A stretch of 54,616 nucleotides of DNA from NCBI GenBank assembly GCA_049971805.1, contig JBMFKU010000008.1, positions 1-54,616 on the forward strand. Reading direction: 5' to 3'. The number at the start of each line of letters is the position of its first letter. The first letter of the stretch is position 1. Below the pieces are notes generated by a model. The model searched no databases, was not told the origin of the DNA, and saw nothing but the letters and a program-made list of their open reading frames with translations. The DNA is from Caldisphaera sp. (lineage in GTDB: Archaea; Thermoproteota; Thermoprotei_A; Sulfolobales; Acidilobaceae). Shown here one piece after another: positions 16,859 through 32,364 of this stretch. Both the position numbers and the translations under genes were made by a program.

Positions 16859-18490
16859 ATGCCGTTGTATGGTTTAGAGGGAGTATCATATGCATATGGT
16901 TTAAACCATTACGAATTGGACAAACCACTTAAAGATGTGCTTAAAAATTATTCTAAATCAAAGATAGATTTTACCGATTTAGGAAAATATTCAGGTAAAG
17001 AAGTTTATGAAGCAACTTATAGAGTTGATGCAGAAAGTCTTCCTAGGTTAATGTATTGGGGGGCTAATGGACAAAGAATTGATTATTCTTGGTTAGATCC
17101 TTATGAAAGAGAAATAATTAAAAATTTAATTCTTAAATATGGTGTTAATAAATTTCCATTTAGTAATGGTACATGGCATGACCATTATACAGGAATCTAT
17201 TTAATAGGCGATCCTGGCTTATCTTGTGTATTAACGATCACAATACAAACAGCTTATGCTCTAAGCAAGTATGCTAATGGTGAATTAAAGAATACCTATA
17301 AGAAATTAGTTGGTATAGAAGAACCATTGATGCTAGGATCAACTTGGTTTACAGAAACGCAAGGCGGCAGCGATTTAGGTGCAAACACGACTACTGCTAA
17401 AAAGATAAGCGATAACAAATATTTGTTAAATGGATATAAATACTTTTCGAGCGGGGCAGGTATAGCAGATATTTCATTAGTATCAGCAAGGCCAGAAAAT
17501 GGCAGACCTGGTGCAAAGGGTTTAGCTATGTTTGCTTTATCAAGATATAATTCTAAAGGGGATCTCAATTATTATATTAGGAGACTTAAGCTGAAAAGCG
17601 GTACAAACTCAGTTCCCACTGGAGAGGTAGAATTAATAAATTCTGAAGCTAGTTTGATAGGAAAAGAAGAAGAAGGCATATACTATATAATGGAAGATCT
17701 AACAGTTTCAAGGTTAGCAAATGCAGTTGGAGCTGTAGGAGTTTCAAGAAAGGCTTATTTAGAGACTTTGGGATTTTCAAAAGACCGTTTTGCATTTGGT
17801 AAAAGGATTATAGAGCATCCATTAATGCAAAGAGATTTATTAGATATGGAAGTTAGCATAGAAGGAGCCTTAGCTTTAACTTTTAAAGCAATAGATGAAT
17901 TTCAAAAATCATCTAATGTAATGCCACCTTATAATAAAGAATACCATTATGCTAGGTTTTTAACTCATATAGCTAAAAACTTAACCGCTGAAATATCATC
18001 AAAAGTTACACAACTTGCTATGGAAGGATTTGGCGGAATAGGATTTTTAAGTGAATATCCCATCGAAAGATGGCATAGGGAAGCGTTGATAACTCCTATA
18101 TGGGAAGGAACCAGTAATATACAAGCATTAGATATGTTAGAAAGTATGGTTAAAAAGAAAGCCCATGAAGTTTATTTAGAAGACATGTCTTCATTAATAA
18201 ATGAAGTTTATGATAAAGATCTTTCAAAAAATGCCTTCAATAAAGCTAAAGACCTCATAAATTGGTTCGGCTCATTATCTCCAAGAGAAGCTGAATATTT
18301 ATCAAAAGACTTTCTCAGGCAATTAGGCCATTTAACATCAGTAATATTGCTAGAAAATTTAGCTTTAAAATCAGGTGATAATTTATATGATATCGTAGCA
18401 AAGCAATATTATAGAGTTTATGTGGATAAAAAGGAACTAGAAATTATTAATAAAGCCAATGAAATCATATCAATGCATGGAAGCATTTAG
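16859..18490 (+). CDS. Acyl-CoA dehydrogenase (AidB-like subfamily)
   Basis: WFTETQGGSDLG, LNGYKYFSS, RRLKLKSGT, RFAFGK, GGIGF, PIWEGTSNIQALD. Confidence 0.88.
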   Translation: MPLYGLEGVSYAYGLNHYELDKPLKDVLKNYSKSKIDFTDLGKYSGKEVYEATYRVDAESLPRLMYWGANGQRIDYSWLDPYEREIIKNLILKYGVNKFPFSNGTWHDHYTGIYLIGDPGLSCVLTITIQTAYALSKYANGELKNTYKKLVGIEEPLMLGSTWFTETQGGSDLGANTTTAKKISDNKYLLNGYKYFSSGAGIADISLVSARPENGRPGAKGLAMFALSRYNSKGDLNYYIRRLKLKSGTNSVPTGEVELINSEASLIGKEEEGIYYIMEDLTVSRLANAVGAVGVSRKAYLETLGFSKDRFAFGKRIIEHPLMQRDLLDMEVSIEGALALTFKAIDEFQKSSNVMPPYNKEYHYARFLTHIAKNLTAEISSKVTQLAMEGFGGIGFLSEYPIERWHREALITPIWEGTSNIQALDMLESMVKKKAHEVYLEDMSSLINEVYDKDLSKNAFNKAKDLINWFGSLSPREAEYLSKDFLRQLGHLTSVILLENLALKSGDNLYDIVAKQYYRVYVDKKELEIINKANEIISMHGSI

Positions 18491-19218
18491 ATCAAATTTT
18501 TTATTAAATTTGGATTTTCCATTAAGGATGTTCCAATAAGAAAAGCGTCTGCTCTGCTTTCTTTTAAAACTTTTATATCATCTTTGTTTTTTATTCCACT
18601 CTCTGCTACTTTTATAAATTTTTTGGGTATAATTTGGAGTAATTTTTTTGTGTTGTTTAGGCTAATGCTTAAGTCAAAAAGATTTCTAGAATTTACACCA
18701 ATCATATCTATATTGTAATTTAATGCTACGTTTAGTTCATTTATGTTATGAACCTCAACCAATACTTCTAATTTATAGCTCCTTGCAACTGATAATAAAT
18801 ATTCTATCTCATTTTCTTTTAAGATTGCTATTATCAACAATATTACATCTGCTCCTAAGTTATATGCGGACTCTATTTGTCTATCAGTAACAATAAAGTC
18901 TTTCATTAATATTGGTTTATTTGTTAATTTACCAATATTTTTTAGATAAGTGTAGGAACCATTGAAATATTTTTCTTCAGTTAATACACTAAATCCAGCT
19001 ACATAGTTTTTTAGAAAATTTACATAGTTTGCATAATCTCTATTTGATAGAAATCCTGATGGCGAACTTCTTTTATATTCTGCTATTATTGGATTATAGT
19101 TGTTGTTTTTTGTATCTAATATAGAATTTTTCATTGAGTGAAGAGGCCTCTCTCTGTTACCTTTTACGACACTTCTTTTAATGGATAATTCGATTACGTC
19201 TTTTAACCAGTTATTCAT
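18487..19218 (-). CDS. trpC: Indole-3-glycerol-phosphate synthase
   Basis: IIAEYKRSSPSG, SVLTEEKYFNGS, ILMKDF, IGVNSRNL, VAESGI. Confidence 0.95.
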   Translation of the reverse strand: MNNWLKDVIELSIKRSVVKGNRERPLHSMKNSILDTKNNNYNPIIAEYKRSSPSGFLSNRDYANYVNFLKNYVAGFSVLTEEKYFNGSYTYLKNIGKLTNKPILMKDFIVTDRQIESAYNLGADVILLIIAILKENEIEYLLSVARSYKLEVLVEVHNINELNVALNYNIDMIGVNSRNLFDLSISLNNTKKLLQIIPKKFIKVAESGIKNKDDIKVLKESRADAFLIGTSLMENPNLIKNLI

Positions 19219-19237
19219 ATTTTTCTTACCTCCTATT

Positions 19238-19861
19238 CTAAGAGTTAAACTTACTTTTGTTTTCCATCACCATATTTAGAAAATTGTAAAATATATTCTT
19301 TCCTATATTTTCATTCATATTGGTTCCAATGCTTTCGGGATGAAATTGAACTCCGTAAATAGGATATTTATCATGATGAACTGCCATTATTTCTCCATCC
19401 TCTTCTGAATAAGCATCAATAATTAATGGCTTCTTAACATCATCTATTACTAAACTATGATATCTTGTTGCATAAAAAGTTTTAGGTAATCCTATAAATA
19501 GCTTAGAGTTGTTATTGCTTACTATTATCTTACTTAATTTCCCATGAAATATCTTTCTAGCATTTCTTATTTTAGAGTTAAATGCGTACCCTATTACTTG
19601 ATGCCCTAAACAAACTCCTAATATTGGAATTTTAGAACCAAATTCTTGAATAATATCTATAGAATAGCCAATGTCTTCATTTTTATCTGGTCTTCCAGGT
19701 CCAGGAGAAATTATAATTCTACTTGGATTTATTTTTTCAACGGTTTTAATTGATACTACGTCATTTCTTAATACTATAGACCTATAGCCGAGCTCTCCAA
19801 TAATTTGTGCTATATTATAGACAAAACTATCATAATTGTCTATTATTAATATTGTATCCAT
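19238..19861 (-). CDS. trpG: Anthranilate synthase component II (glutamine amidotransferase)
   Basis: [36 protein letters not shown]. Confidence 0.95.
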
Positions 19862-21027
19862 TATTTAACACCCATAGAAACCTTTAATGATTTAAGTTTA
19901 TGCTCGGTTTCTTCATATTCTAATTCTGGTATTGAATCATAAACTATACCTGCACCTGCTTGTATTCTAATTAAGTCATTATTTATGAATGCGCTCCTTA
20001 TTGAAATTGCAAGACTTGATCTACTTTTCGAAATATAACCAACAGCACCAGCATATGGCCCTCTATTGTAAATTTCTAATGAATTTATAAGATTCATAGA
20101 AAATGGCTTAGGAGCTCCTGAAACTGTACCTGCAGGAAACATTGCTTTAATTACATCAAGCACATTTTTGTTTTCATCTAGCTTACCTACAACTTTTGAA
20201 ACTATATGTTGTACATGGCTGTATTTTTTTATGAAAAATGATTCTGGTACATCAACTGTACCTGGAGCGCAAACCTTGCCCAAATCATTTCTGGCTAAGT
20301 CAAGAAGCATTAGGTGTTCTGCTCTATCCTTAGTAGAATTTCTTAGTTCGTTTTCCAAAACTATATCTTCTTGAGAACTTTTACCTCTAGGTCTTGTACC
20401 TGCTATAGGGTATGTGATCAAATCATTATTATTTAATTCAAAGAGTAATTCTGGACTTGCGCCAATAATATATCTCTTGTAAAATTTTAAAAAATATAAA
20501 TACGGTGATGGACTTATTTTTCTTAGTTTTAAATATAACTCCAAAGGATCACCACTAAATGAATACCTTAGAAACCTAGATAAAACAACCTGAAATGCAT
20601 ATCCAGAATGTATGTATTTTAAAATTTCATTTACGTCATCTTCGTAATCTTCTTTTTTATGGGAATAGTCGTATTCTTTAACTTTGAACTTATCTTTATT
20701 ATGATAGTTGATGCAACTTTTTTCATCATCGTCTGAAAAGTTAACTTTATCTTTAATTATGATAGTTTTTTTAGGTGAAAAGAATTCTGCAAAAGGCCAA
20801 TTTTCTAATTCAATTGGTTTGTATTTAATTTTTTCCCAGTATCTTATAGAGTCATAGGATATGTAACCAATTACTCTTTTATTGTTTAAATTATGTAAAT
20901 CAGTCAAAGGATCGTATAAGCTTTTTATATAATCGTTTGAATCATAAGCTATTATTACTTCTTTTTTGTCATAGGAATTTTCTAATACAGCCATAATATC
21001 ATTATTATCGTTTAAACATCTAATCAA
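19861..21027 (-). CDS. trpE: Anthranilate synthase component I (true start possibly ATT at 21054)
   Basis: [63 protein letters not shown]. Confidence 0.93.
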
Positions 21028-21046
21028 ATTTTCTAAATCATTATAA

Positions 21047-21637
21047 TTAATAATTCTTAACCACCTCCAAAATTTTCTTAACTAAAAATGGATCCTTCTT
21101 ACCAGGTAGTATTTCAACACCTCTTGATATATCTATCCAATAAGGATCTAAATCAATAAAATCCTTTATATTATCAGCATTAATCCCACCTGCTATACCT
21201 ATCTTAACGCTATGGTCAATCATCTTTCTTAAAATTCTCTTATCAGCTTTCTGATTTTTATTTAATGTGTCTAAGAGAATCATATCGGAGTAGCTTTCTG
21301 TTTTTTTAAGGTAATCTAAATATTTTAATGATGAAGGTACATATAAAATAAATTTTTTATTGAAATTTTTTAATTCTTCTAGTTCATTATCGTTTAAAAT
21401 TCTATGTATTTGTATGTATTTTGTTTTTATATATTGAATATCTTCTATTTTGTAGTTTGCTATAACAGTAACTATTGGTATTTTAGTGATTTCCATGGCT
21501 TTTTGTATTTTCTCTTCATCAACATATCTTGGACTTATTTTGTCGTTAATCATGCCTATAAAATCGATATTAAATGAGTTCAGCATTTTAACATCTTCTA
21601 AATTATTTACTCCACAAATTTTAATTTTTATTACCAT
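21047..21637 (-). CDS. trpF: Phosphoribosylanthranilate isomerase
   Basis: KIKICGV, SPRYV, IQIH, AGGINADN, IDISRGVE..PGKKD. Confidence 0.92.
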   Translation of the reverse strand: MVIKIKICGVNNLEDVKMLNSFNIDFIGMINDKISPRYVDEEKIQKAMEITKIPIVTVIANYKIEDIQYIKTKYIQIHRILNDNELEELKNFNKKFILYVPSSLKYLDYLKKTESYSDMILLDTLNKNQKADKRILRKMIDHSVKIGIAGGINADNIKDFIDLDPYWIDISRGVEILPGKKDPFLVKKILEVVKNY

Positions 21638-22667
21638 AAGCTTTCACCAAAATTTTATTTAATTGCTCAATATTTCCATTGATAGAAACCATTTCTTTGA
21701 TTCTATTAAGAAAATTATCTAATAATTCTTTTGATAGCTCAAATCCATCTTCTAATGATTTTACCTTATTAATTAAATATAGACCTAAAGATGTGTTTAG
21801 TCTAATATATGTTTCAACGTCTTTATCTAACCCTAAAGAGGATCTTATTACTTTAATTGCGGATTCTTCAGGACTATTAACAATTAAGTTAGATATATTA
21901 ACCTTATTAACTTTAAAGTCATTTATTGAAATTTTGTATTTATCTATCTTATCCTTCTTAACCTCTACTATAAAGCTTTCCCCAACAGGAGAAACCTCAT
22001 CTAAACCAGGCTCTCCATTTATTAGAATGATCTTTTCATAGTTTAATCTACTTGCAGCATCTGCTAGAACATCCAAATATGAGATTGGATAAACACCGAC
22101 CAGTTGAACCTTAACGTTAGCTGGATTTGCAAATGGTCCAATGAAGTTGAAAATACTCCTAATGCCTAGTTTTTTTCTGATGATGGCCACATTTTTCATA
22201 CTCTTATGATATAATTGCGCAAATAGGAATACAAAATTATTTTTTTTAAGCAGATTTGCTGCATTATTTGGCTCTATATATATGTTGTAACCAAGAGATT
22301 CTAAAAAATCAGCGCTTCCGCTTTTACTCGAGGCAGCTCTATTACCATGCTTTGCAACCGGTATTAGATTACTTAATAATATAGAAACTGTTGTACTTAC
22401 ATTAATAGTGCTAAGCCCATCACCACCAGTTCCAACTATATCTATGGCATTTTCTATGCCTAAATTACTAGCATGTTTTCTAAGAGATTTTATAAATCCT
22501 ATTATTTCATCAGCGCTTTCACCTTTAACCTTTAATGCAGTTAGTATAGACCCAGCTATGGTCTCATCAAAGTTGTTTTCTAAAAGCATATCAGCTAAAT
22601 TTTCAGCCTCTTCTTCGCTTAAATTTTTTTTATCTGATAAAATCTTAAGATAATCAGACAGGTTCAT
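21621..22667 (-). CDS. trpD: Anthranilate phosphoribosyltransferase
   Basis: DIVGTGGDG, VAKHGNRAASSKSGSADFLE, GPFANP, GLDEVS. Confidence 0.95.
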   Translation of the reverse strand: MNLSDYLKILSDKKNLSEEEAENLADMLLENNFDETIAGSILTALKVKGESADEIIGFIKSLRKHASNLGIENAIDIVGTGGDGLSTINVSTTVSILLSNLIPVAKHGNRAASSKSGSADFLESLGYNIYIEPNNAANLLKKNNFVFLFAQLYHKSMKNVAIIRKKLGIRSIFNFIGPFANPANVKVQLVGVYPISYLDVLADAASRLNYEKIILINGEPGLDEVSPVGESFIVEVKKDKIDKYKISINDFKVNKVNISNLIVNSPEESAIKVIRSSLGLDKDVETYIRLNTSLGLYLINKVKSLEDGFELSKELLDNFLNRIKEMVSINGNIEQLNKILVKAYGNKN

Positions 22668-23397
22668 CTAAGATCCCCCTAATTTCTTTTATCAATTCAA
22701 AAGCCGAGTTTATTCCTTCTTTTTCTATCCTTTCTATAAAGGCAGATCCAATGGCAACACCATCAGCTCCGGAATTAATTACATTCCTTATATCATTGAA
22801 TGACAATCCGAAACCAACAACAAGCTTGTTGTTAACAATGCTTCTAACTCTTTTTACTAGTTTATCCGGTGAAATCGGTATCTCTATTCCAGTTGTTGGC
22901 CTTATACCATAATATAAGAACTCATCACTGATTTCGGCTAATTTTTCTATTAGCTTATCTGGTACAGACGGTGTTGTAAAAATTACATTTTTAAGCGAGT
23001 GCTTTTTTATTATATCGTTGTACTTTTCAAAATCATCTATATAGTCAATAGTCAAATCTGGAAATAATACTCTATTAATTCCAATATCTTTTAGTTGTGA
23101 TAAAAATTTTTCAAAATTATCCATATAGTCTTCTAAATAAGCAAGTGCTATCACTTTTAATGTAATTTTGTCTAAAATTCCTTTCATTATATTATAAACA
23201 TCGATCATCTCATTTATGACTTTTTCATAACTTCTTCTAATGATTGGTCCATCATATTTTGCATTCTTTGTTGGAATTCCTACCTCTAACATATCACATC
23301 CACATTTTTCAGCATTTTTAATGAATTCTAAGAAATATTCTTTATTTGGATAGCCAAGTGTCATATAACATACTAATAATTTTCTGCTTGATTTCAT
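22654..23397 (-). CDS. trpA: Tryptophan synthase alpha chain
   Basis: [35 protein letters not shown]; ATGA overlap with trpB stop. Confidence 0.93.
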
Positions 23398-24665
23398 AAA
23401 GACCACCTGGAAATCATCGATTCATAATTTGGTAGATCAAGAAGTCCATGTCCACTTAAATTAAAAACAATCGTTTTCTTTTCTTTAGTTTTTTTCAATT
23501 CCATTGCCTTATTTATAACAGCTTTAATAGCATGAGCTGATTCCGGTGCAGGTATAATTCCTTGAGATTTAATAAATAATTTTGCAGCATCAAATATTTC
23601 TTTCTCGCTGTATTCTTTCCATTTAATAATTCCCTCTTTTATCAATAGGCTTAAAGTTGGTGCTATTCCATGATATCTCAAGCCACCAGAATAAATGGGG
23701 GGAGGAACATAATTGTTTCCTAAGGTAATCATTTTTATCAAAGGTAATAAGCCGGCAGTATCTGCAAAATCATATCTATATTCACCTTTACTGAACTTAG
23801 GTACTTCTTCTGAACCAACTGCAATATATTCTTCTCCAATTTTATTACCTATAAATGGATAAGTAAACCCACCAAAATTGCTACCTCCACCAACACAACC
23901 AATTAATATGTCTGGATTTTCTCCAATTTCTTCTAGTTGAGCCTTTGTTTCTAAGCCGATTATGCTTTGATGTAATAGAGCAACATCTAATACGCTTCCA
24001 ACTAAATACTTATATTTATTTTTTAAAGCGTATTCTATTGCTTCGCTCATTGCTATGCCTAATGAGCCAGGATGATTTTCATTTTCTCTAATAAGTTTGT
24101 TGCCAATTTCAGTTATATTTGATGGACTTGGATAGACATCAGCACCATATAGTTTCATAATAGTTTTTCTCATTGGTTTTTGTTCATAGCTAACCTTTAC
24201 CATAAAGACTGTAGATTTCATATTGAATAGAGACGAAGAAAATGCAACAGCAGTTCCCCATTGCCCAGCCCCAGTTTCTGTTGTTACATGATTAATTCCT
24301 TCATTTAATGAGAAGTAGGATTGGGCTAGTGCTGTGTTAATTTTGTGAGATCCAGTTGGAGTTGCCCCTTCATATTTAAAATATATCCTTGCTGGAGTGT
24401 CAAGTAATTTTTCTAAACTCTTTGCTCTCATCAAAGGCGTTGGTCTTCCCAAAATAGCATATTTTTCTCTTAATTCATCAGGAATTTTAACATATCTTTC
24501 TATAGTAAATTCTTGTCTTAAAATCTCTTTTGGCATGATTTCTTTAAGTAATCCGATTCTAGAAAACTCGGAATTAGGGGGATCACGAGGAGGAGACAAG
24601 GGTTTTGGAAGATCAGGTATTATATTATACCAAAACCCTGGAATTAAATCTTCATTACTTACCAT
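23394..24665 (-). CDS. trpB: Tryptophan synthase beta chain, TrpB2 type
   Basis: [22 protein letters not shown] (PLP Lys), [37 protein letters not shown]; start taken at ATG 24665. Confidence 0.95.
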
Positions 24666-24673
24666 TGGCGCAC
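24659..24673 (-). other. Putative trp leader mini-ORF GTG-CGC-CAA-TGG-TAA (MRQW*) overlapping the trpB ATG
   Basis: SD AGGTGG at 24684-24679 is 5 nt from this GTG but 13 nt from the trpB ATG; last sense codon is Trp. Confidence 0.5.
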
Positions 24674-24709
24674 AACAACCACCTTTCAAGTAAATTATAA
24701 TATAAGGGA

Positions 24710-24769
24710 ATTATAAACTTTACTAAATAATATTAAAAATAAAAGATTTATTAAAGGAAAGTTTAAATA
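24710..24769. promoter_or_regulatory. Divergent archaeal promoters for trp (minus) and aro (plus) operons
   Basis: AAAG-TTTATAAT on minus (24717-24710) and GGAAAG-TTTAAATA on plus (24762-24769), each about 30 nt before an SD. Confidence 0.65.
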
Positions 24770-24802
24770 GTAGGATTGTAATATAAACTTAGAGGTGTGG
24801 AT

Positions 24803-24850
24803 GTGATGGAGTTCCAATGGGGCGAGGGTATGATGCCCAGCCAATATTAA
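24803..24850 (+). other. Putative aro leader peptide MMEFQWGEGMMPSQY*
   Basis: SD GAGGTG at 24792-24797, GTG 5 nt later; contains Phe, Trp and Tyr; the transketolase ORF is its -1 frame. Confidence 0.55.
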
Positions 24851-25605
24851 GTGAGTTTAGCTCGTTGTCTTCTGTCCAGTTTGATTTTGAGAAAATATTT
24901 GAAAAAATGGTTGAAACAAATTCTCGTGTGACAAATACATTAAATGGGCTGATGAAAGATATTAATAATTTTCACAAAGATTCGTCGTTCTCATCATTAA
25001 ATATACTAATAGCTTTGTATGAATATTGGATACCCAAAGGGAATATACAGAGAATCAATAGATCTGTAATACTCAGTAAAGGTCATGCAGCACCTGCATT
25101 ATATGCTTTGCTAGCAGAAAAGGGTTTAATAAGTAAAGAAGAACTTAATTATTTTGCTTATCCAAATTCAAGGCTTCAATCTCATCCAGAAGGAAATAAA
25201 GTACCAGGCATTCTGTTTTCCACTGGTTCATTAGGTCAAGGCCTATCAGTAGCCAATGGATTGGCTTATGCATCTAAATTAAACCAGGAAAAAAGAGAGT
25301 TTGCCGTTATACTTGGGGATGGAGAGCTTGATGAAGGCCAAATATGGGAATCTATTGCAACATCGTACAACCTTAAGATTGACAATGTTATTGCAATTAT
25401 AGATAGAAATGGATTTCAGCTCTCTGGTCACACAGAAGAGATAAAAATTAAAGAACCAATTAAGAAAAAATTTGAATCTTTTGGATGGTACACAATAGAA
25501 ATTAATAATAATTTGAATGAGCTTATCTTGTCTCTAGAATTAATGTCTGAAATAAAGGGTTTACCAAAAGCAATAATTGTTAAATCAATGCAATCTTTTA
25601 GGTGA
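24817..25605 (+). CDS. Transketolase, N-terminal subunit (start uncertain: 24817 or TTG 24865)
   Basis: ILSKGHAAPALY, LQSHP, STGSLGQGLS, GDGELDEGQIWE TPP motif, IDRN. Confidence 0.9.
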   Translation: MGRGYDAQPILSEFSSLSSVQFDFEKIFEKMVETNSRVTNTLNGLMKDINNFHKDSSFSSLNILIALYEYWIPKGNIQRINRSVILSKGHAAPALYALLAEKGLISKEELNYFAYPNSRLQSHPEGNKVPGILFSTGSLGQGLSVANGLAYASKLNQEKREFAVILGDGELDEGQIWESIATSYNLKIDNVIAIIDRNGFQLSGHTEEIKIKEPIKKKFESFGWYTIEINNNLNELILSLELMSEIKGLPKAIIVKSMQSFR

Positions 25606-26552
25606 ATTCTATGATTTTAGACAGCAGTTACAGAGAGTCCCTTGGAAAAAGTCTAGTTGAAATAGGGGAATCTAATAACGATGTAGTTGTAGTTGATTCC
25701 GATGTTTCAAAATCAACATACACAAAATACTTTGCAGAAAGATTTCCTGATAGATTTATATCGGTTGGAATAAGTGAACAAGATTTAGTTGGATTTGCAT
25801 CAGGGCTTGCTCTAGGAAATAAAATACCAATTGCAGTTACATTTTCCATGTTTCTAATGAGAGCATGGGAACAAATTAGAAATACTATAGCTAGAGATAA
25901 ATTAAATGTGAAATTAGTTGGAACTCATTCAGGGCTATCAGACTTTTTAGATGGATCTTCACATCAATCATTAGAGGATATTGCTTTAATGAGAATATTA
26001 CCAAATTTTATTGTATTAGCACCTTCAGATAGCATTTCAACTAAAAAGCTGCTCTATGAATCCATACTTAATCACATAGGGCCAGTTTATATTAGATTAG
26101 GTAGAGATAATTCTCCAAGAATTTATGATGATAATGAAGAATTTAAAATAGGCAGATCTAAGGTAATTTGTGAAGGTAAAGATATTGCATTCTTTTCATA
26201 CGGTCCAATGGTTGAAATAGCAAAAATTTTATCAAGTAACTTAAAAAATAAAGGGATTAGCTCAACAGTGATAGATTTTTATTCAATAAAGCCATTCGAT
26301 GAAGATACCGTTTTAAAGTTTTCAAAAAGATCAAATTACATTGTAACATTAGAGGAACATAACGTTATTGGAGGTATAGGAGATTTAATATCTTCTTTTT
26401 TGTCTTTTAAAAATCCTAAAAAAGTAATTAAGTTTGGGATAGAAGATAAGTTTGGGACCTCAGCGAGGAGTTATTTTGAATTATTAGAATTTTTTAAACT
26501 ATTACCTCATAATATCGAGAAAAAGTTAGAGGTGATTATTAATGAACTATAA
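25602..26552 (+). CDS. Transketolase, C-terminal subunit
   Basis: FPDRFISVGISEQ, RAWEQIRN, DGSSHQSLED, GPVYIRLGR, LEEHNVIGG. Confidence 0.92.
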   Translation: MNSMILDSSYRESLGKSLVEIGESNNDVVVVDSDVSKSTYTKYFAERFPDRFISVGISEQDLVGFASGLALGNKIPIAVTFSMFLMRAWEQIRNTIARDKLNVKLVGTHSGLSDFLDGSSHQSLEDIALMRILPNFIVLAPSDSISTKKLLYESILNHIGPVYIRLGRDNSPRIYDDNEEFKIGRSKVICEGKDIAFFSYGPMVEIAKILSSNLKNKGISSTVIDFYSIKPFDEDTVLKFSKRSNYIVTLEEHNVIGGIGDLISSFLSFKNPKKVIKFGIEDKFGTSARSYFELLEFFKLLPHNIEKKLEVIINEL

Positions 26553-27342
26553 GCTTGTGAGTAAGGATTACAAGGATAAAACCTATGTTAAAATAGGAAA
26601 TGTTTTGGTTGGAAATGGTTCACCAGTTATAATAGCAGGTCCATGTGCAGTTGAAAATAGAGACCAAATAATGATAACTGCTAAGTTTGTTAAGGAAAAT
26701 AGCGCAAGCATATTAAGAGGAGGGGCCTTCAAGCCAAGATCTTCTCCATACAGCTTTCAAGGTCTCGGTGAAGAGGGGTTAAAGTTATTGAGAGAGGCAA
26801 GCGATACATATAAAATTCCTTTTGTTACAGAGGTTCTAGATGTTAGGAACATAAAATTGGTATCAGAATATGCAGATGCGTTACAAGTAGGAGCTAGAAA
26901 CATGCAAAACTTTGCCTTAATTAAGGAGCTGAGCAAAGTTGATAAGCCAATATTATTAAAAAGAGGATTTGGCAATACTATTGACGAGTTACTGCAATCA
27001 GCCGAATATATATTGTATGGTGGCAATGAACAGGTTATTTTAGTTGAAAGAGGTATAAGAACTTTTGAAATATCAACAAGATTTACTTTAGATATTTCTG
27101 CAGTTCCAGTATTAAAGAATTTAACTCATTTGCCTGTAATTGTTGATCCTAGTCATGCAGCTGGGAAAAGAGCACTCGTTCCACCTATGGCCAAGGCTGC
27201 ATTGGCAGCTGGCTCTGATGGAATAATGGTAGAGGTTCATCCAGATCCGGATAAAGCATTATCCGATGGCCCTCAACAACTGACTTTTGATATGTTCAAA
27301 CAACTGATTGATGATTTAAAAAATCTTAATCTTTTAAGGTGA
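26542..27342 (+). CDS. aroF: DAHP synthase, class I-beta
   Basis: IAGPCAVE, RGGAFKPRSSPYSFQG, QVGARNMQN, ERGIRTFE, DPSH, EVHP. Confidence 0.93.
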   Translation: MNYKLVSKDYKDKTYVKIGNVLVGNGSPVIIAGPCAVENRDQIMITAKFVKENSASILRGGAFKPRSSPYSFQGLGEEGLKLLREASDTYKIPFVTEVLDVRNIKLVSEYADALQVGARNMQNFALIKELSKVDKPILLKRGFGNTIDELLQSAEYILYGGNEQVILVERGIRTFEISTRFTLDISAVPVLKNLTHLPVIVDPSHAAGKRALVPPMAKAALAAGSDGIMVEVHPDPDKALSDGPQQLTFDMFKQLIDDLKNLNLLR

Positions 27343-27346
27343 AAAG

Positions 27347-28384
27347 ATGAAATTTTCGTTATGTAATAAAGACACTGAAGTAATAATAGGGAAAAACATA
27401 ATAAGCAATAATATACCTTTACACAGAAAATATTTTCTAGTTTATTCTGAAGGATTAGAAAAATTAATAAGCAATACCATATTGAGTAAATTTAAATCAT
27501 ATAAAGTACCAAACGGAGAAGCATCAAAGGAAATGAATTATGCAATAGCTATATTAAAAGAAATTTTAGATTACGATTTTACAAGAAATGATGGTATAAT
27601 AGCGTTAGGTGGTGGAACAGTTTCAGATTTAGCTGGATTCGTTTCATCAATTTATATGAGAGGTACCTATTTAATAAACATACCCACAACATTACTAGCT
27701 ATGGTAGATGCCTCAATTGGAGGAAAAAATGGACTTAACTTTTATGGATATAAAAATATTATTGGCTCTTTTTATCAACCAAATTTAATATTAGAAGATA
27801 TAGATTTTTTAAAGACTCTTCCAAAAGAGGAAATTATGAATGGTTTGGGAGAAATCATTAAATATGCCATGATGCTCGACAAGGAATTTTATTACTATTT
27901 GCTAAATGAAAAAGATAATATAATAAATTATGGAGAAAATCAATTATCTTATATAATAAGCAGATCGGTTTATCATAAAATGAGTATAGTTAAAGAAGAT
28001 GAAATAGAAACAAAAGGATTAAGAACAATATTAAATTTTGGTCACACAATAGGTCATGCAATAGAATCTGCAAGTTTATTTAAAGTCAAACATGGATATG
28101 CAATCTCATATGGCATGCTATGTGAGACGAAAATTGGTGTAGATAACAATTTAATAAGTGAAGATGTACTTTCATATCTTGAGGATATATTAAGGAGTTT
28201 TGATTATAATTTTAATAGTATAGAGATTGATAAAGAAATAGCAATTAAAGCAATAAAGCATGATAAGAAAAAACAAGGCAATAAAATAATGCTTCCATTG
28301 CCTGCGAAAGTAGGATCATGGAAGATATTTCATGTTGATCTAGATTTATTGGAAAAGGGATTAAATTTATGTCTGAAGAATTAA
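27347..28384 (+). CDS. aroB: 3-dehydroquinate synthase
   Basis: ALGGG, PTTLLAMVDASIGGKNG, LNFGHTIGHAIE, HGYAI, DKK. Confidence 0.95.
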   Translation: MKFSLCNKDTEVIIGKNIISNNIPLHRKYFLVYSEGLEKLISNTILSKFKSYKVPNGEASKEMNYAIAILKEILDYDFTRNDGIIALGGGTVSDLAGFVSSIYMRGTYLINIPTTLLAMVDASIGGKNGLNFYGYKNIIGSFYQPNLILEDIDFLKTLPKEEIMNGLGEIIKYAMMLDKEFYYYLLNEKDNIINYGENQLSYIISRSVYHKMSIVKEDEIETKGLRTILNFGHTIGHAIESASLFKVKHGYAISYGMLCETKIGVDNNLISEDVLSYLEDILRSFDYNFNSIEIDKEIAIKAIKHDKKKQGNKIMLPLPAKVGSWKIFHVDLDLLEKGLNLCLKN

Positions 28385-29121
28385 GGCTTGGGCTTATTGG
28401 AGAAAATATTTTTTCAAGTCCTAGCCCTCAAATACACAATTATATATATGAAAAATATGATATCAAAGCCAAGTACAATCTTTATCAGATTAAAGCATCT
28501 GAATTCGAATATCTAATAAAAAATTTATTAAAAGAAAATTATGGTCTAAATGTTACAATGCCTTATAAAGAGATTATAATAAAATATCTAAAGGCCCTCT
28601 CTCCTGAAGCTGAAAAAACTAAGGCAGTAAACACAATAAAAGATTATATTGGATTTAATACTGATTATATAGCTTTTAAAAAATTAGTTAAAAATAAAAT
28701 TAAGGGAAAAATTAGAAGTTCTTTGATCCTAGGTGCAGGAGGGGCTGCGAGGGCTTCTGCTTTTGCTTTAGGTGATTTGGGATCAAAAATACTTATTTTT
28801 AATAGAACAAAAGAAAGGGCGGAAAAACTAGCCAATGATTTGCTGAGAGACGACATTGAATCATATGTCATTGATAACTTGAAGGTAAAAGACGACATTG
28901 ATGTTATAGTCAACACAATACCAGTAGACTTTAATTTTAATTTGAATCCATTAAAAGGATATATAGATTTTGTTTATTCTAGGTTTCCTTCTATTAATAC
29001 CGCTACTATAATAGATGGAAAGGAAATTTTGTTGTATCAAGCTATAGAAGCAGAAAAAATATGGTTTAATTTGCAGTTTGATGAGGTGATATTAGATAAT
29101 GTCAGGAAACTCATTTGGTAA
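28369..29121 (+). CDS. aroE: Shikimate dehydrogenase
   Basis: [35 protein letters not shown]. Confidence 0.93.
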
Positions 29122-30247
29122 AATGTTTAAAATTACTACCTTTGGGGAAAGTCATGGAAAAGCTATGGGAGTTGTAATAGATGGAGTTCCAGCAGGATTA
29201 CCTATAAATGAAGATGACATATATTTCGAATTATCTTTCAGAAAGCCAGGAAATTTTTATGTTTCGACAAGAAAAGAGGAAGACAAACCAATAATTTTAA
29301 GCGGTGTTTTTAATGGAAAAACTACAGGAGCTCCCTTGGGAATAATTATAGAAAATATTGATCCAATGCCAATACATTACGAAGAGATAAGATATAAACC
29401 GAGGCCAGGACACGCTGATTTACCTTATATAGAAAAATACGGTTATGAGAATTGGGATTATAGAGGAGGAGGAAGGAGCAGCGCAAGAGAAACTATATCA
29501 AGAGTTGCAGCAGGTTCTATTGCAAAGAAGCTTTTGTTATTAACAAACACTATAATAGCTGGCTATATTAAAGGAATTGGAAACCTGTATATAGATTATA
29601 TACCTGAATTTAAAGAGGTTTTATGTTCTAGGAATAGTAAGGTTAGAACAATTAAAAGTTTTGAGAAAGATGTAGAAAACCTGATAGAAAATATTAGGAA
29701 AGAAGGGGATAGCATAGGAGGACTTGTTGAAATAATAGTTAAGAATCCACCAAAATCGTTAGGTGAACCTGTATTCGATAAAATAAAGGCAAATTTAGCA
29801 AAGGCAGTTCTATCAATTCCAGGTGTTTTAGGTTTTGAGTACGGTCTGGGCTTTAATGCCTTCAAAATGAAAGGAAGCGAAGTAGCTGATGAAATATACC
29901 ATGATAAAGATTTCAAATTCAAAAGAAATATAGCAGGAGGCATTTTAGGAGGGATAACAACAGGAGAAGACTTAATTTTAAGAACAGTTTTTAAACCTAC
30001 TAGTTCGACTAGAAAAATCCAAAAAACGATTGATTTGAGAACGATGAAAGAAGCAGAACTTTTCATAAAAGGAAGACATGATCCTTGTATAGCTATAAGA
30101 GGAGTATCAGTATTAGAATCTATGGTTTCTCTTGTTTTAGTAGATCACATGCTAATTAATGGAATTATACCTAAGAATAGACTTGAAAAGAATCAAACGG
30201 AAGTAATTGAGGACAGGTGGGAAAAATTAAAGAAGGAATGCACTTAG
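29099..30247 (+). CDS. aroC: Chorismate synthase
   Basis: [45 protein letters not shown]. Confidence 0.96.
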
Positions 30248-30996
30248 CCTATGGAGGAATTTCTATAGTAAATGCTGTTCCTTGCGGTAATGGAGCAGTA
30301 ATGCCAATAGATTTAAAGGTTTATGCGAGAGAAGGAAAAAGCAGCAAGGATTCATCCTTAACAATAGCAATTAAAGATTACATAAGAAAAAAATATAATA
30401 TACTAACAGATTTTTATATAGAATCAGAAATTCCTGAAGGAATGGGATTAAAGAGCAGTAGTGCAGTATCTGTAGCAGCAATTTCCTCTATAGCAAATAA
30501 AATTGGAAATCCTTACCCTCCATATTTATCTGCGAAAATATCAAAAGAATATGGATTGTCGATTACTGGGGCTTTTGATGATGCAGTCGCAAGCTATACT
30601 GGTATGATAAGCTTTACTAACAACTATTCATTTAATATAGTAAAATTGGAAAAAAATGCAGAAGAACTAAAGGCAATAATTCTAATTAAAGAAAGTCGGC
30701 ATCCCATAAACTTAGACTTGATGAGAAAAAGATGTAATAAATTTAATTCAGCTTATAAGATGGCTTTAGAAGGTAGAATATATGACGCCATGATACTAAA
30801 TGGTAAATTGATGGCAGAAATTAATGGTTATAGTCTAGAAATTATAGATAATGCATTAAAAAAAGGAGCATTATCGGCAGGTATATCAGGCAACGGTCCT
30901 TCTTATTTTGCTTTAACAAAAAATGGAGAAGAAGGTTCAATAATTGATTTATTTTCTACATATGGAAAATTAATAGTCGTGGATGTATTGCATTAG
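30217..30996 (+). CDS. aroK: Archaeal (GHMP-type) shikimate kinase (start may be ATG 30238)
   Basis: [39 protein letters not shown]. Confidence 0.9.
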
Positions 30997-31134
30997 AATT
31001 ATATAGAAATTTAAAGACTTAAAAATTTTAATGGGTTTGATATATAAATATTTATTAATAAAATGGTTTTATTAAAGCTAACACTTAAGAGTCTTTTTAT
31101 ACTTAAATTTTTATAAGGATTGGAGGGCAGTTGA

Positions 31135-32364
31135 ATGCAGGCAATTATATATCCATCAATAATTTCAGGAGAGATTGATTCTCCAAAGTCAAAGTCTATA
31201 GCAATAAGAATCCTTTTCTCATCTTTATTAAAAGATATAACATTAAAAGAGAACGTACCAACTTCGCTAGATGTAATATATACCTATGATTCGATTATAA
31301 AATTGGGAGTAAGAGTTGATGATAAAAGATTGATTAAACCAAATAGGATTAATTTATTAAATAACAAATTTTATGCTGGTGGATCAGCAACATTAGCAAG
31401 AATTTTATCTTCAATAGCTTTGACTATTGGAGGAGATATAATAATAGATGGGAATGAAACTCTAAGAAATAGACCGTTTGATGGATTGGAAAAGATTTCA
31501 AATTCTACAGGAGTTAAAATTTCAGGTACAAAGTTGCCAATAAGAATCTATGGAAAACCCAAATCAAATGAAATTTTTTTATCTGAAATAGAAAGTTCTC
31601 AGTATGTGACTGGTTTAATTTATGGCTTACTTGCTAAGGGGGGAGGAGAAATTATTATGGATAAAAATCCTCCTTCTCTTTATTATATATTGTTGACTAT
31701 AGACACATTGAATAATATAGGATGTAATGTTTCATATAATGATAATATAATTAATGTAGGAAAATGCAATGAAAAAGAAATAAGCTTAAGCTTTCCAGGA
31801 GATTATTTATTATCATCATTTTATGGAATTTCATCAATATTAACTGGAGGAGAAATTAAAATTAAGGGGCTTTATAGTCCTCCTAATTATTTTGGGGATC
31901 ATTCGATAGTAAATATTTTATCCGAGATTGGGTTTAAATCAATTGTTTCAGGTACAACATGGATTGTAAGTAACAGCAATCCTATAAAAAATTTATATGT
32001 AGATATTGAAGAAACTCCAGATATAGCTATGTCCTTGGCGCCTCTTGGAATGATTATTAATTTGAATATTAATAATATAAAAATACTAAAAATAAAAGAA
32101 AGCAATAGAATAGAGTCAATTAAAAATATTATAGAAGGCTTTGGAGGCAGAGTAAGAATTAATGACAACTCTATCGAATTATATCCAAATGTAATTAGAT
32201 ATGCTGAAACTGATTGCTTTAATGATCACAGAGTTGCTATGATGGCATCAACAATTGCATTTATTAAGGGGGGTAAAATAAGGAATGCTGAGTGCGTAAA
32301 TAAAAGTGATCCTGATTATTGGCACAGATACTACAATGTAGGAGGTAGGCTTAAAGTTGAATAG
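31135..32364 (+). CDS. aroA: EPSP synthase
   Basis: PKSKSIAIR, GSATLAR, LRNRP, SSQYVTG, KESNRI, NDHRVAM, VNKSDP. Confidence 0.92.
   Translation: MQAIIYPSIISGEIDSPKSKSIAIRILFSSLLKDITLKENVPTSLDVIYTYDSIIKLGVRVDDKRLIKPNRINLLNNKFYAGGSATLARILSSIALTIGGDIIIDGNETLRNRPFDGLEKISNSTGVKISGTKLPIRIYGKPKSNEIFLSEIESSQYVTGLIYGLLAKGGGEIIMDKNPPSLYYILLTIDTLNNIGCNVSYNDNIINVGKCNEKEISLSFPGDYLLSSFYGISSILTGGEIKIKGLYSPPNYFGDHSIVNILSEIGFKSIVSGTTWIVSNSNPIKNLYVDIEETPDIAMSLAPLGMIINLNINNIKILKIKESNRIESIKNIIEGFGGRVRINDNSIELYPNVIRYAETDCFNDHRVAMMASTIAFIKGGKIRNAECVNKSDPDYWHRYYNVGGRLKVE

Follow-up and report, generated by a model that had tools for sequence, protein, structure and literature searches.

A Leader Reading Frame Ahead of trpB in Caldisphaera as a Candidate Hungry-Codon Frameshift Switch

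The trp operon in the DNA analysed here (the window, 54,616 nucleotides of Caldisphaera sp., GenBank assembly GCA_049971805.1, contig JBMFKU010000008.1) is headed by the short reading frame MRQW* (the asterisk denotes the stop), which probably acts as a programmed switch: a hungry Trp codon is predicted to cause a −1 frameshift into trpB and so turn on the pathway. Even more confidently, the comparison of homologous sequences leads us to regard the leader as conserved, matched to its pathway and very likely sensing amino acids through translation. The minus-strand operon has the gene order trpB-A-D-F-E-G-C, and Pfam returned Trp_syntA, Glycos_transf_3, PRAI, Chorismate_bind, GATase and IGPS for the genes from trpA to trpC. 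We take trpB to be of the TrpB2 type, judging by likeness. Its N-terminus from 24665 can be aligned with homologues starting at residue 1, and the sequence upstream of trpB is identical in a locus of the same genus (L002) and in Caldisphaera L031. An aro operon 130 nt away diverges from the trp operon, starting at 24817 (Table 1); its GHMP-type kinase gene is presumably aroK.

Table 1. Coordinates of leader, operon and putative promoter features in the window.
Feature	Position	Strand	Comment
TATA-like box TTTATAA, trp operon	24711..24717	−	34 nt before SD core; putative promoter element
Shine-Dalgarno AGGTGG	24679..24684	−	spacing suits leader start, not trpB ATG
Leader ORF GTG CGC CAA TGG TAA (MRQW*)	24659..24673	−	
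Predicted shift site C_CAA_TGG	24662..24668	−	−1 frame = CCA ATG; putative shift
trpB	23394..24665	−	PALP domain; −1 frame relative to MRQW* leader
trpA, trpD, trpF, trpE, trpG, trpC	18487..23406	−	overlapping or closely spaced, 3' of trpB
TATA-like box TTTAAAT, aro operon	24762..24768	+	putative promoter element
Shine-Dalgarno GAGGTG of aro leader	24792..24797	+	
Aro leader ORF MEFQWGEGMMPSQY*	24806..24850	+	alternative start GTG 24803
Predicted Phe site G_GAG_TTC	24808..24814	+	most relatives: G_GAA_TTY
Predicted Trp site C_CAA_TGG	24814..24820	+	overlaps ATG 24817
Second SD-like GAGGGT, ATG ATG CCC AGC, Tyr site	24824..24847	+	
Predicted Tyr site C_CAA_TAT	24841..24847	+	
tktN (transketolase N-terminal gene), aro operon gene 1	24817..25605	+	−1 frame of all three predicted sites
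tktC, DAHP synthase, aroB, aroE, aroC, GHMP-type kinase, aroA, aroD	25602..32980	+	

On the minus strand from 24684 to 24659 the Shine-Dalgarno (SD) sequence AGGTGG is followed, after a gap of 5 nt, by GTG CGC CAA TGG TAA, and the trpB ATG at 24665 consists of the A of CAA and the TG of TGG. An earlier sequence-only reading had placed the leader at 24673 to 24659, with the SD 5 nt from its GTG and 13 nt from the trpB ATG, and these distances were reproduced, as was the ordinary spacing of its comparison genes, whose GGTG stands 5, 5, 7 and 5 nt ahead of the ATG. Its doubt that the extension MKGGCCAP is protein is likewise borne out, as the extension is not conserved among homologues. Among 847 ORFs examined in the own genome, 277 long ORFs carry GGTG within 20 nt of the start; the gap amounts to 5–8 nt in 237 of them and to 12–14 nt in a single one.

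The strict leader pattern occurs 16 times in this genome, twice followed by Trp, which is barely beyond chance, so the case rests on conservation. Further, 13 heads of the type SD-start-CCAA were found, of which three belong to trp/aro and ten resemble ordinary in-frame starts or chance. In another genome (G358) 40 pattern matches left only trpB (L150) and tktN as cassette-headed long ORFs. Loose patterns gave no support for the cassette, being about as frequent across whole genomes as in the reversed control, as would be expected if the leader were due to chance or a by-product of the TrpB N-terminal sequence. This explanation can nearly be dismissed: conservation falls on bases ahead of the TrpB start, and these bases reappear at unrelated genes (tktN, trpA, trpD and thrC) and vary in step with the product of the pathway.

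The cassette was defined as an SD, one of the starts ATG, GTG or TTG, a C-ending codon and CAA TGG, with trpB in the −1 frame. It is present at 80 of the 180 distinct trpB-like loci that include a 5' end, a count taken over related, not independent loci with SD patterns that were widened after inspection of the data. It was found in 16 of 16 loci of the family f4 (Sulfolobaceae by likeness to L033, L036 and L040), in all four Ignisphaera-like f7 loci and in 21 of 28 loci of a set inspected individually, likewise in f1, f2, f5, f8, f9, f53, f54 and f65 as well as in the Nitrososphaerales/Thaumarchaeota bins L047, L052 and L086. The 100 loci without it belong to bacteria, Thermococci, Archaeoglobi, Thermoplasmata and other Thermoproteota families, or are operon-internal trpB genes. 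The proposal that a leader with a Trp codon heads trpBADFEGC is thereby upheld, the homologues keeping it together with the SD and a varying start codon. Of 73 distinct cassettes, 41 have ATG as the nearest leader start, 27 TTG and five GTG, and the distance of this start to the SD is 5–7 nt in 56; both the varying start and the spacing argue for the leader as a translated unit.

In principle, trpB could be initiated at its own ATG while leader translation, depending on the Trp supply, competes with it or alters mRNA stability or the coupling of transcription and translation. The normal trpB ATG, the conserved N-terminus and the nearby leader stops would suit such a decoy. However, all 73 cassettes place the SD 13–19 nt away from the trpB ATG, a ribosome stalled on TGG would mask this ATG and cause repression under starvation, which is the wrong sign, and several tktN, hisC and thrC genes lack a usual start. 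A stable structure is not seen either: the 80 nt 5' region folds at −17.3 kcal/mol compared to −13.1 ± 2.8 kcal/mol for shuffled sequences, 1.5 SD (standard deviations) below. We therefore consider the decoy quite improbable. Folding of both leader regions of the window revealed nothing clearly beyond shuffles, and positions 24500 to 25000 gave no Rfam match. With no clear structure in either region, transcription attenuation was ruled out.

Conserved at trpB are C_CAA_TGG and the −1 frame relation, and sites of this kind occur there for Trp only. The codon preceding the slip codon is CGC in 35 of the 73 cassettes, AGC in 16, CAC in 13, TAC in four, TTG in three, and CCC and TTC in one each. 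A C-ending codon, standing for six different amino acids, precedes CAA in 70 of them (one CGA case included), the C-ending share among trpB codons being 21.5 %; in the three TTG-preceded cassettes GAA comes next, not CAA. When any four bases were allowed in front, CCAA, GGAA or CCGA (68, 3 and 1) still preceded 72 of 75 leader-frame Trp codons, compared to two of the 72 aromatic codons outside the leader frame. Exceptions at Trp sites are C_GAA_TGG (L251), C_AAG_TGG (L114, the altered tktN Trp site of genome G002, in which the operon trpB has decayed with many stops) and TTG TGG TAA (Met-Trp-stop), found at the head of the stand-alone trpB of G002 (L023; G002:C1:4932-5596). Two trpB2 loci of f26 (L270, L272) and the f52 locus L265 show other upstream motifs with a leader-frame Trp codon (ATC TGG, GAC TGG); there the gene frame shows CTG, and an ordinary start was not seen.

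The leader stop lies 0–6 codons past Trp at trpB and 0–19 codons at tktN, with no fixed overlap of stop and start. The sequence-only reading had regarded the stop on top of the trpB start as a working part and had predicted an invariant GTA behind the ATG. Such a role of the stop is not supported, and its overlap is dispensable: a stop directly after Trp occurs in just 28 of the 73 cassettes, 26 of 34 at at least 60 % identity and 2 of 39 below, and the prediction fails outside the close operon-type genes. Other Val codons, or a missing upstream start and SD, had been named as observations that would speak against the whole idea: the second trpB codon does vary, which counts in part against it, whereas start and SD are kept.

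We propose that translation would begin on the leader and that a shortage of charged tRNA-Trp would make the ribosome pause, its P site occupied by CAA and its A site empty at TGG. The P-site tRNA could then move back by one base, from CAA to CCA, keeping the pairs of the first and third position, and reading would go on in the trpB frame, so that starvation would turn the enzyme on. With plentiful Trp, TGG would be read, the stop would be reached within 0–6 codons and no TrpB would be formed. The downstream trp genes would follow via translational coupling. Re-pairing of the P-site tRNA explains why C precedes CAA and G precedes GAA, in each case a copy of the codon's own first base. Against the slip stands the middle-position mismatch of CAA on CCA, as re-pairing at two of three positions is poor by usual standards. 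Among the literature matches listed, none offered an N-terminal data set usable for the trans-frame product.

Beyond the sequence-only reading, a Phe/Trp/Tyr version of the leader lies at the divergent aro operon, and further versions were found at other amino-acid operons. The 78 distinct tktN loci comprise 22 with sites for Phe, Trp and Tyr, nine with Trp and Tyr, 14 with Phe and Tyr, 16 with Tyr, one with Phe and Trp, two with Phe and 14 with none. In the tktN leader frame, 104 of 120 aromatic codons follow CCAA, GGAA or GGAG and 16 lack the X_XAA/GGAG context, compared to 0 of 34 following these bases in the other frames. Tandem cassettes of f4 are spaced 24–33 nt apart, invariably by a multiple of three, and a stop between them in L214, L217, L232 and L233 implies an own start for each. 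Chained leaders such as RQYQFQW* (L129) and MEFQYQW (L235, L255) also exist. Seven tktN loci are without a usual start, a count which leaves out L215, L216, L245, L247, L252 and the doubtful site L207. Only L130 and L132 among them have no in-frame ATG, GTG or TTG ahead of the conserved His motif; in L193–L195 the first one lies 3–10 codons ahead of it.

The same data bear on the notion that CCAATGG is a near-palindromic DNA operator or an RNA site of an unknown regulator, with an incidental leader ORF. CCA-N-TGG is indeed palindromic and occurs at both divergent operons, but CCAATAY, GGAATTY, GGAAACA and CCAACTC lose the palindrome and retain the codon logic. Moreover, the upstream start is only ever ATG, GTG or TTG and stands in triplet register with sites confined to one frame. 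We rate an operator as very unlikely.

The match of sensed codon and pathway extends from Trp alone at trpB and Phe/Trp/Tyr at tktN to Thr at thrC and Leu at leuA. At thrC, G TTG GAA ACA (G_GAA plus Thr) occurs in all of the 30 loci that matched best among 99 genomes with a match, each of them from f4; an early in-frame start is retained in 28 of these genes, and L506 and L508 have no ATG, GTG or TTG within 25 codons past the site. The thrC gene of the own genome (G000:C6:6239, plus strand) shows an SD and A TTG ACA (Thr), and the leader stop overlaps its ATG. For hisC, A TTG CAC CAA CC was found in 30 of the 30 best loci (L460–L489; all f4, of 60 genomes), twelve invariant bases with no synonymous change, of which CAA CC past the His codon is unexplained by our model. 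In 24 of these loci no usual start occurs in the next 25 codons.

At leuA, C_CAA_CTC (Leu) occurs at five of 30 loci. Outside f4, A TTG plus a Leu codon is present in 12 of 13 loci, five of which also have C_CAA_CTC. T_ATT_CTC in L543, L545, L546 and L548 is an exception to the slip context. The five plus-strand f4 leuA heads compared (L538, L543, L545, L546, L548) carry an apparently leaderless mini-ORF, M-S/R-F/I-L-x-stop, with leuA in the −1 frame; the slip context of these mini-ORFs is imperfect, and a usual start in frame is missing from L546 and L548. The form A TTG plus codon, also seen as A TTG TAT at five f3 tktN loci, would be consistent with the initiator tRNA slipping from TTG to ATT, though the case is weaker than that of the CAA form. 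Among 34 ORF heads with SD and ATTG in the own genome, one looks like a normal ATT start: the 244-codon ORF at G000:C2:44522 (plus strand) has a good SD and no ATG, GTG or TTG in its first 50 codons.

These sites allow the main rival of the frameshift to be weighed, in which the ribosome stalls, drops its peptidyl-tRNA and begins anew 2 nt further along, where AUG is overlapped (for Tyr or Phe, AUA or AUU), similar to an AUGA overlap. A followed by TGG, TAY or TTY always yields AUG, AUA or AUU, the SD would keep the ribosome in place, the gene just described apparently starts at ATT, and at L023, L114 and L251 the overlapped start fits better than a slip. As every Trp site gives AUG automatically, re-initiation keeps a share of the probability for trpB itself. 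The early in-frame starts of most thrC genes, the exceptional sites (L023, L114, L251 and T_ATT_CTC at leuA), the 16 tktN codons outside the context, Trp cassettes at an operon without a known tie to Trp (see below) and the relatedness of the genomes weigh against the frameshift as well. It leaves unexplained, however, the repeated first base before CAA and GAA, the Thr and Leu sites, where the overlapped triplets AAC and ACT are not start codons, and thrC of L506 and L508. Lacking a usual start ahead of the His motif, tktN of L130 and L132 favors the slip as well. Overall we regard it as unlikely, though clearly less so than the other alternatives, and favor the −1 slip.

The Trp cassette also follows the head of the transcription unit when another gene takes this place, as found for trpD (L376) and trpA (L399, L400); in L399 and L400 it additionally opens short −1-frame ORFs ending at the trpD start. 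In f7 genomes (L402:1324, L403:1056, L401:154) it opens a −1-frame ORF of 31–42 codons, which in L402 ends at the start of an acyl-CoA-ligase-like gene. The neighbors in L402 are presumably acyl-CoA-ligase-like and indolepyruvate-oxidoreductase-like genes, named by likeness, and could possibly form an aryl-acid salvage route. In eight genomes (L351–L356, L372, L380) the cassette heads an operon of a 4Fe-4S ferredoxin and an aldehyde:ferredoxin oxidoreductase (positions L396:950, L397:8713 and L398:8629), which is without a known link to Trp; a permease-like or ABC-transporter-like gene follows in two genomes, and trpB was without a match in most of the eight. A cognate cassette was not seen within 1.5 kb of ilvC (7 loci), pheA (6), tyrA-like (30) and lys/arg kinase genes, whose operon heads may lie further out.

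The trp transcript is predicted from the position of the TATA-like box to start just 5' of the SD. Such a box lies 27–36 nt ahead of the SD at 45 of the 55 cassettes with a match, of 73 in total. RNA reads of the relative G157 (locus L142) rise in depth from 2 to 24 at 1476–1491, just 5' of the SD at 1482–1486, and nine reads end at 1478, 23 nt before the trpB ATG at 1501. These data are thin, comprising 199 reads of a single short-insert library with no read end above the detection threshold, but the rise in depth just 5' of the SD makes it likely that the trpB mRNA contains the leader.

According to the available part of a 2019 paper, Crenarchaeota have aro and trp operons and almost none of the regulators TrpY and Tar, so that a third mechanism was suggested and the regulation was left open (PMC6737238). 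The leader is a concrete and testable candidate for this third mechanism of crenarchaeal trp/aro control. On the strength of the sequences compared we lean towards a broader reading, in which Thermoprotei would control Trp, Phe, Tyr, Thr, His and Leu operons by switches of 9–15 nt that need neither protein nor structure and consist of start codon, slip codon and end-product codon. Chained sites, such as Phe-Trp-Tyr in the window, would provide a branched pathway with an OR gate, and in a second form the initiator tRNA would slip from TTG to ATT; taken together, this may be the missing third mechanism. Should this hold, the annotated starts of trpB, tktN, hisC, thrC and leuA would in many cases be wrong, a 15-nt amino-acid sensor would become usable as a tool, and the hungry-codon frameshift leader would represent a previously undescribed way of sensing starvation. 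For Sulfolobaceae, both genetics and in vitro translation exist. Our literature search, covering few subscription papers and no supplements, gave no description of the leader element, and the combination of leader-codon sensing with regulatory frameshifting was not found in this form in the literature searched.

Similar to TrpY and Tar, which the same 2019 paper describes, as far as available, as transcription factors acting on archaeal trp/aro operons and nearly absent from Crenarchaeota (PMC6737238), the leader would control these operons. TrpY and Tar are DNA-binding proteins, in contrast to the leader. The trpY gene has a Met-Trp dipeptide leader, for which the literature search gave no match. 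With the bacterial leader-peptide attenuators trpL, pheL, hisL and thrL it has in common that a leader ORF with end-product codons heads a biosynthetic operon, one Trp codon in the trp leader and Phe, Trp and Tyr codons at aro. In contrast to the trpL type, one codon is sensed instead of a run, spacer, terminator and antiterminator are missing, and the leader overlaps its gene in the −1 frame.

In hungry −1 frameshifting a single P-site tRNA slips next to a vacant A site and structure is not needed, according to the accessible text of a 2021 review (PMC8211752). Likewise, shortage of an aminoacyl-tRNA would here empty the A site and the P-site tRNA would slip by −1; hungry shifting is, however, described as a side effect of starvation, whereas the leader site is kept among relatives and carries the codon of its pathway. 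A 2016 review states, in its accessible part, that no functional starvation-specific trans-frame product of hungry-codon shifting is known (PMC5009743). The −1 frameshift of fucA1 in Saccharolobus solfataricus, also a crenarchaeon, is according to the 2021 review the sole archaeal one reported (PMC8211752); it uses the heptamer A-AAA-AAT and a stem-loop after 81 codons and does not sense an amino acid. A canonical −1 heptamer (X_XXY_YYZ) is absent from the leader, as C_CAA_TGG permits no A-site re-pairing; a stimulatory 3' structure of the kind such sites carry 5–9 nt downstream did not clearly stand out from shuffles in either leader region of the window. In ermCL, a ketolide-induced frameshift in a leader ORF (PMC5009743, accessible part) similarly turns on the downstream gene, but the inducer is an antibiotic and the unfolding mRNA permits new initiation.

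A close parallel is prfB, the bacterial gene of release factor 2 (RF2), for which the accessible part of the 2016 review describes an autoregulatory frameshift (PMC5009743). In both, the zero-frame ORF is short, an SD-like element stands 5' of the site, sensing would fall to a slow A-site codon and the functional product lies in the new frame. However, prfB shifts by +1 at a stop codon and senses RF2, while the leader would shift by −1 at a sense codon 2–8 codons from the start, respond to an amino acid and serve several operons. As proposed here, the leader works like the autoregulation of prfB, yet is not a member of that class.
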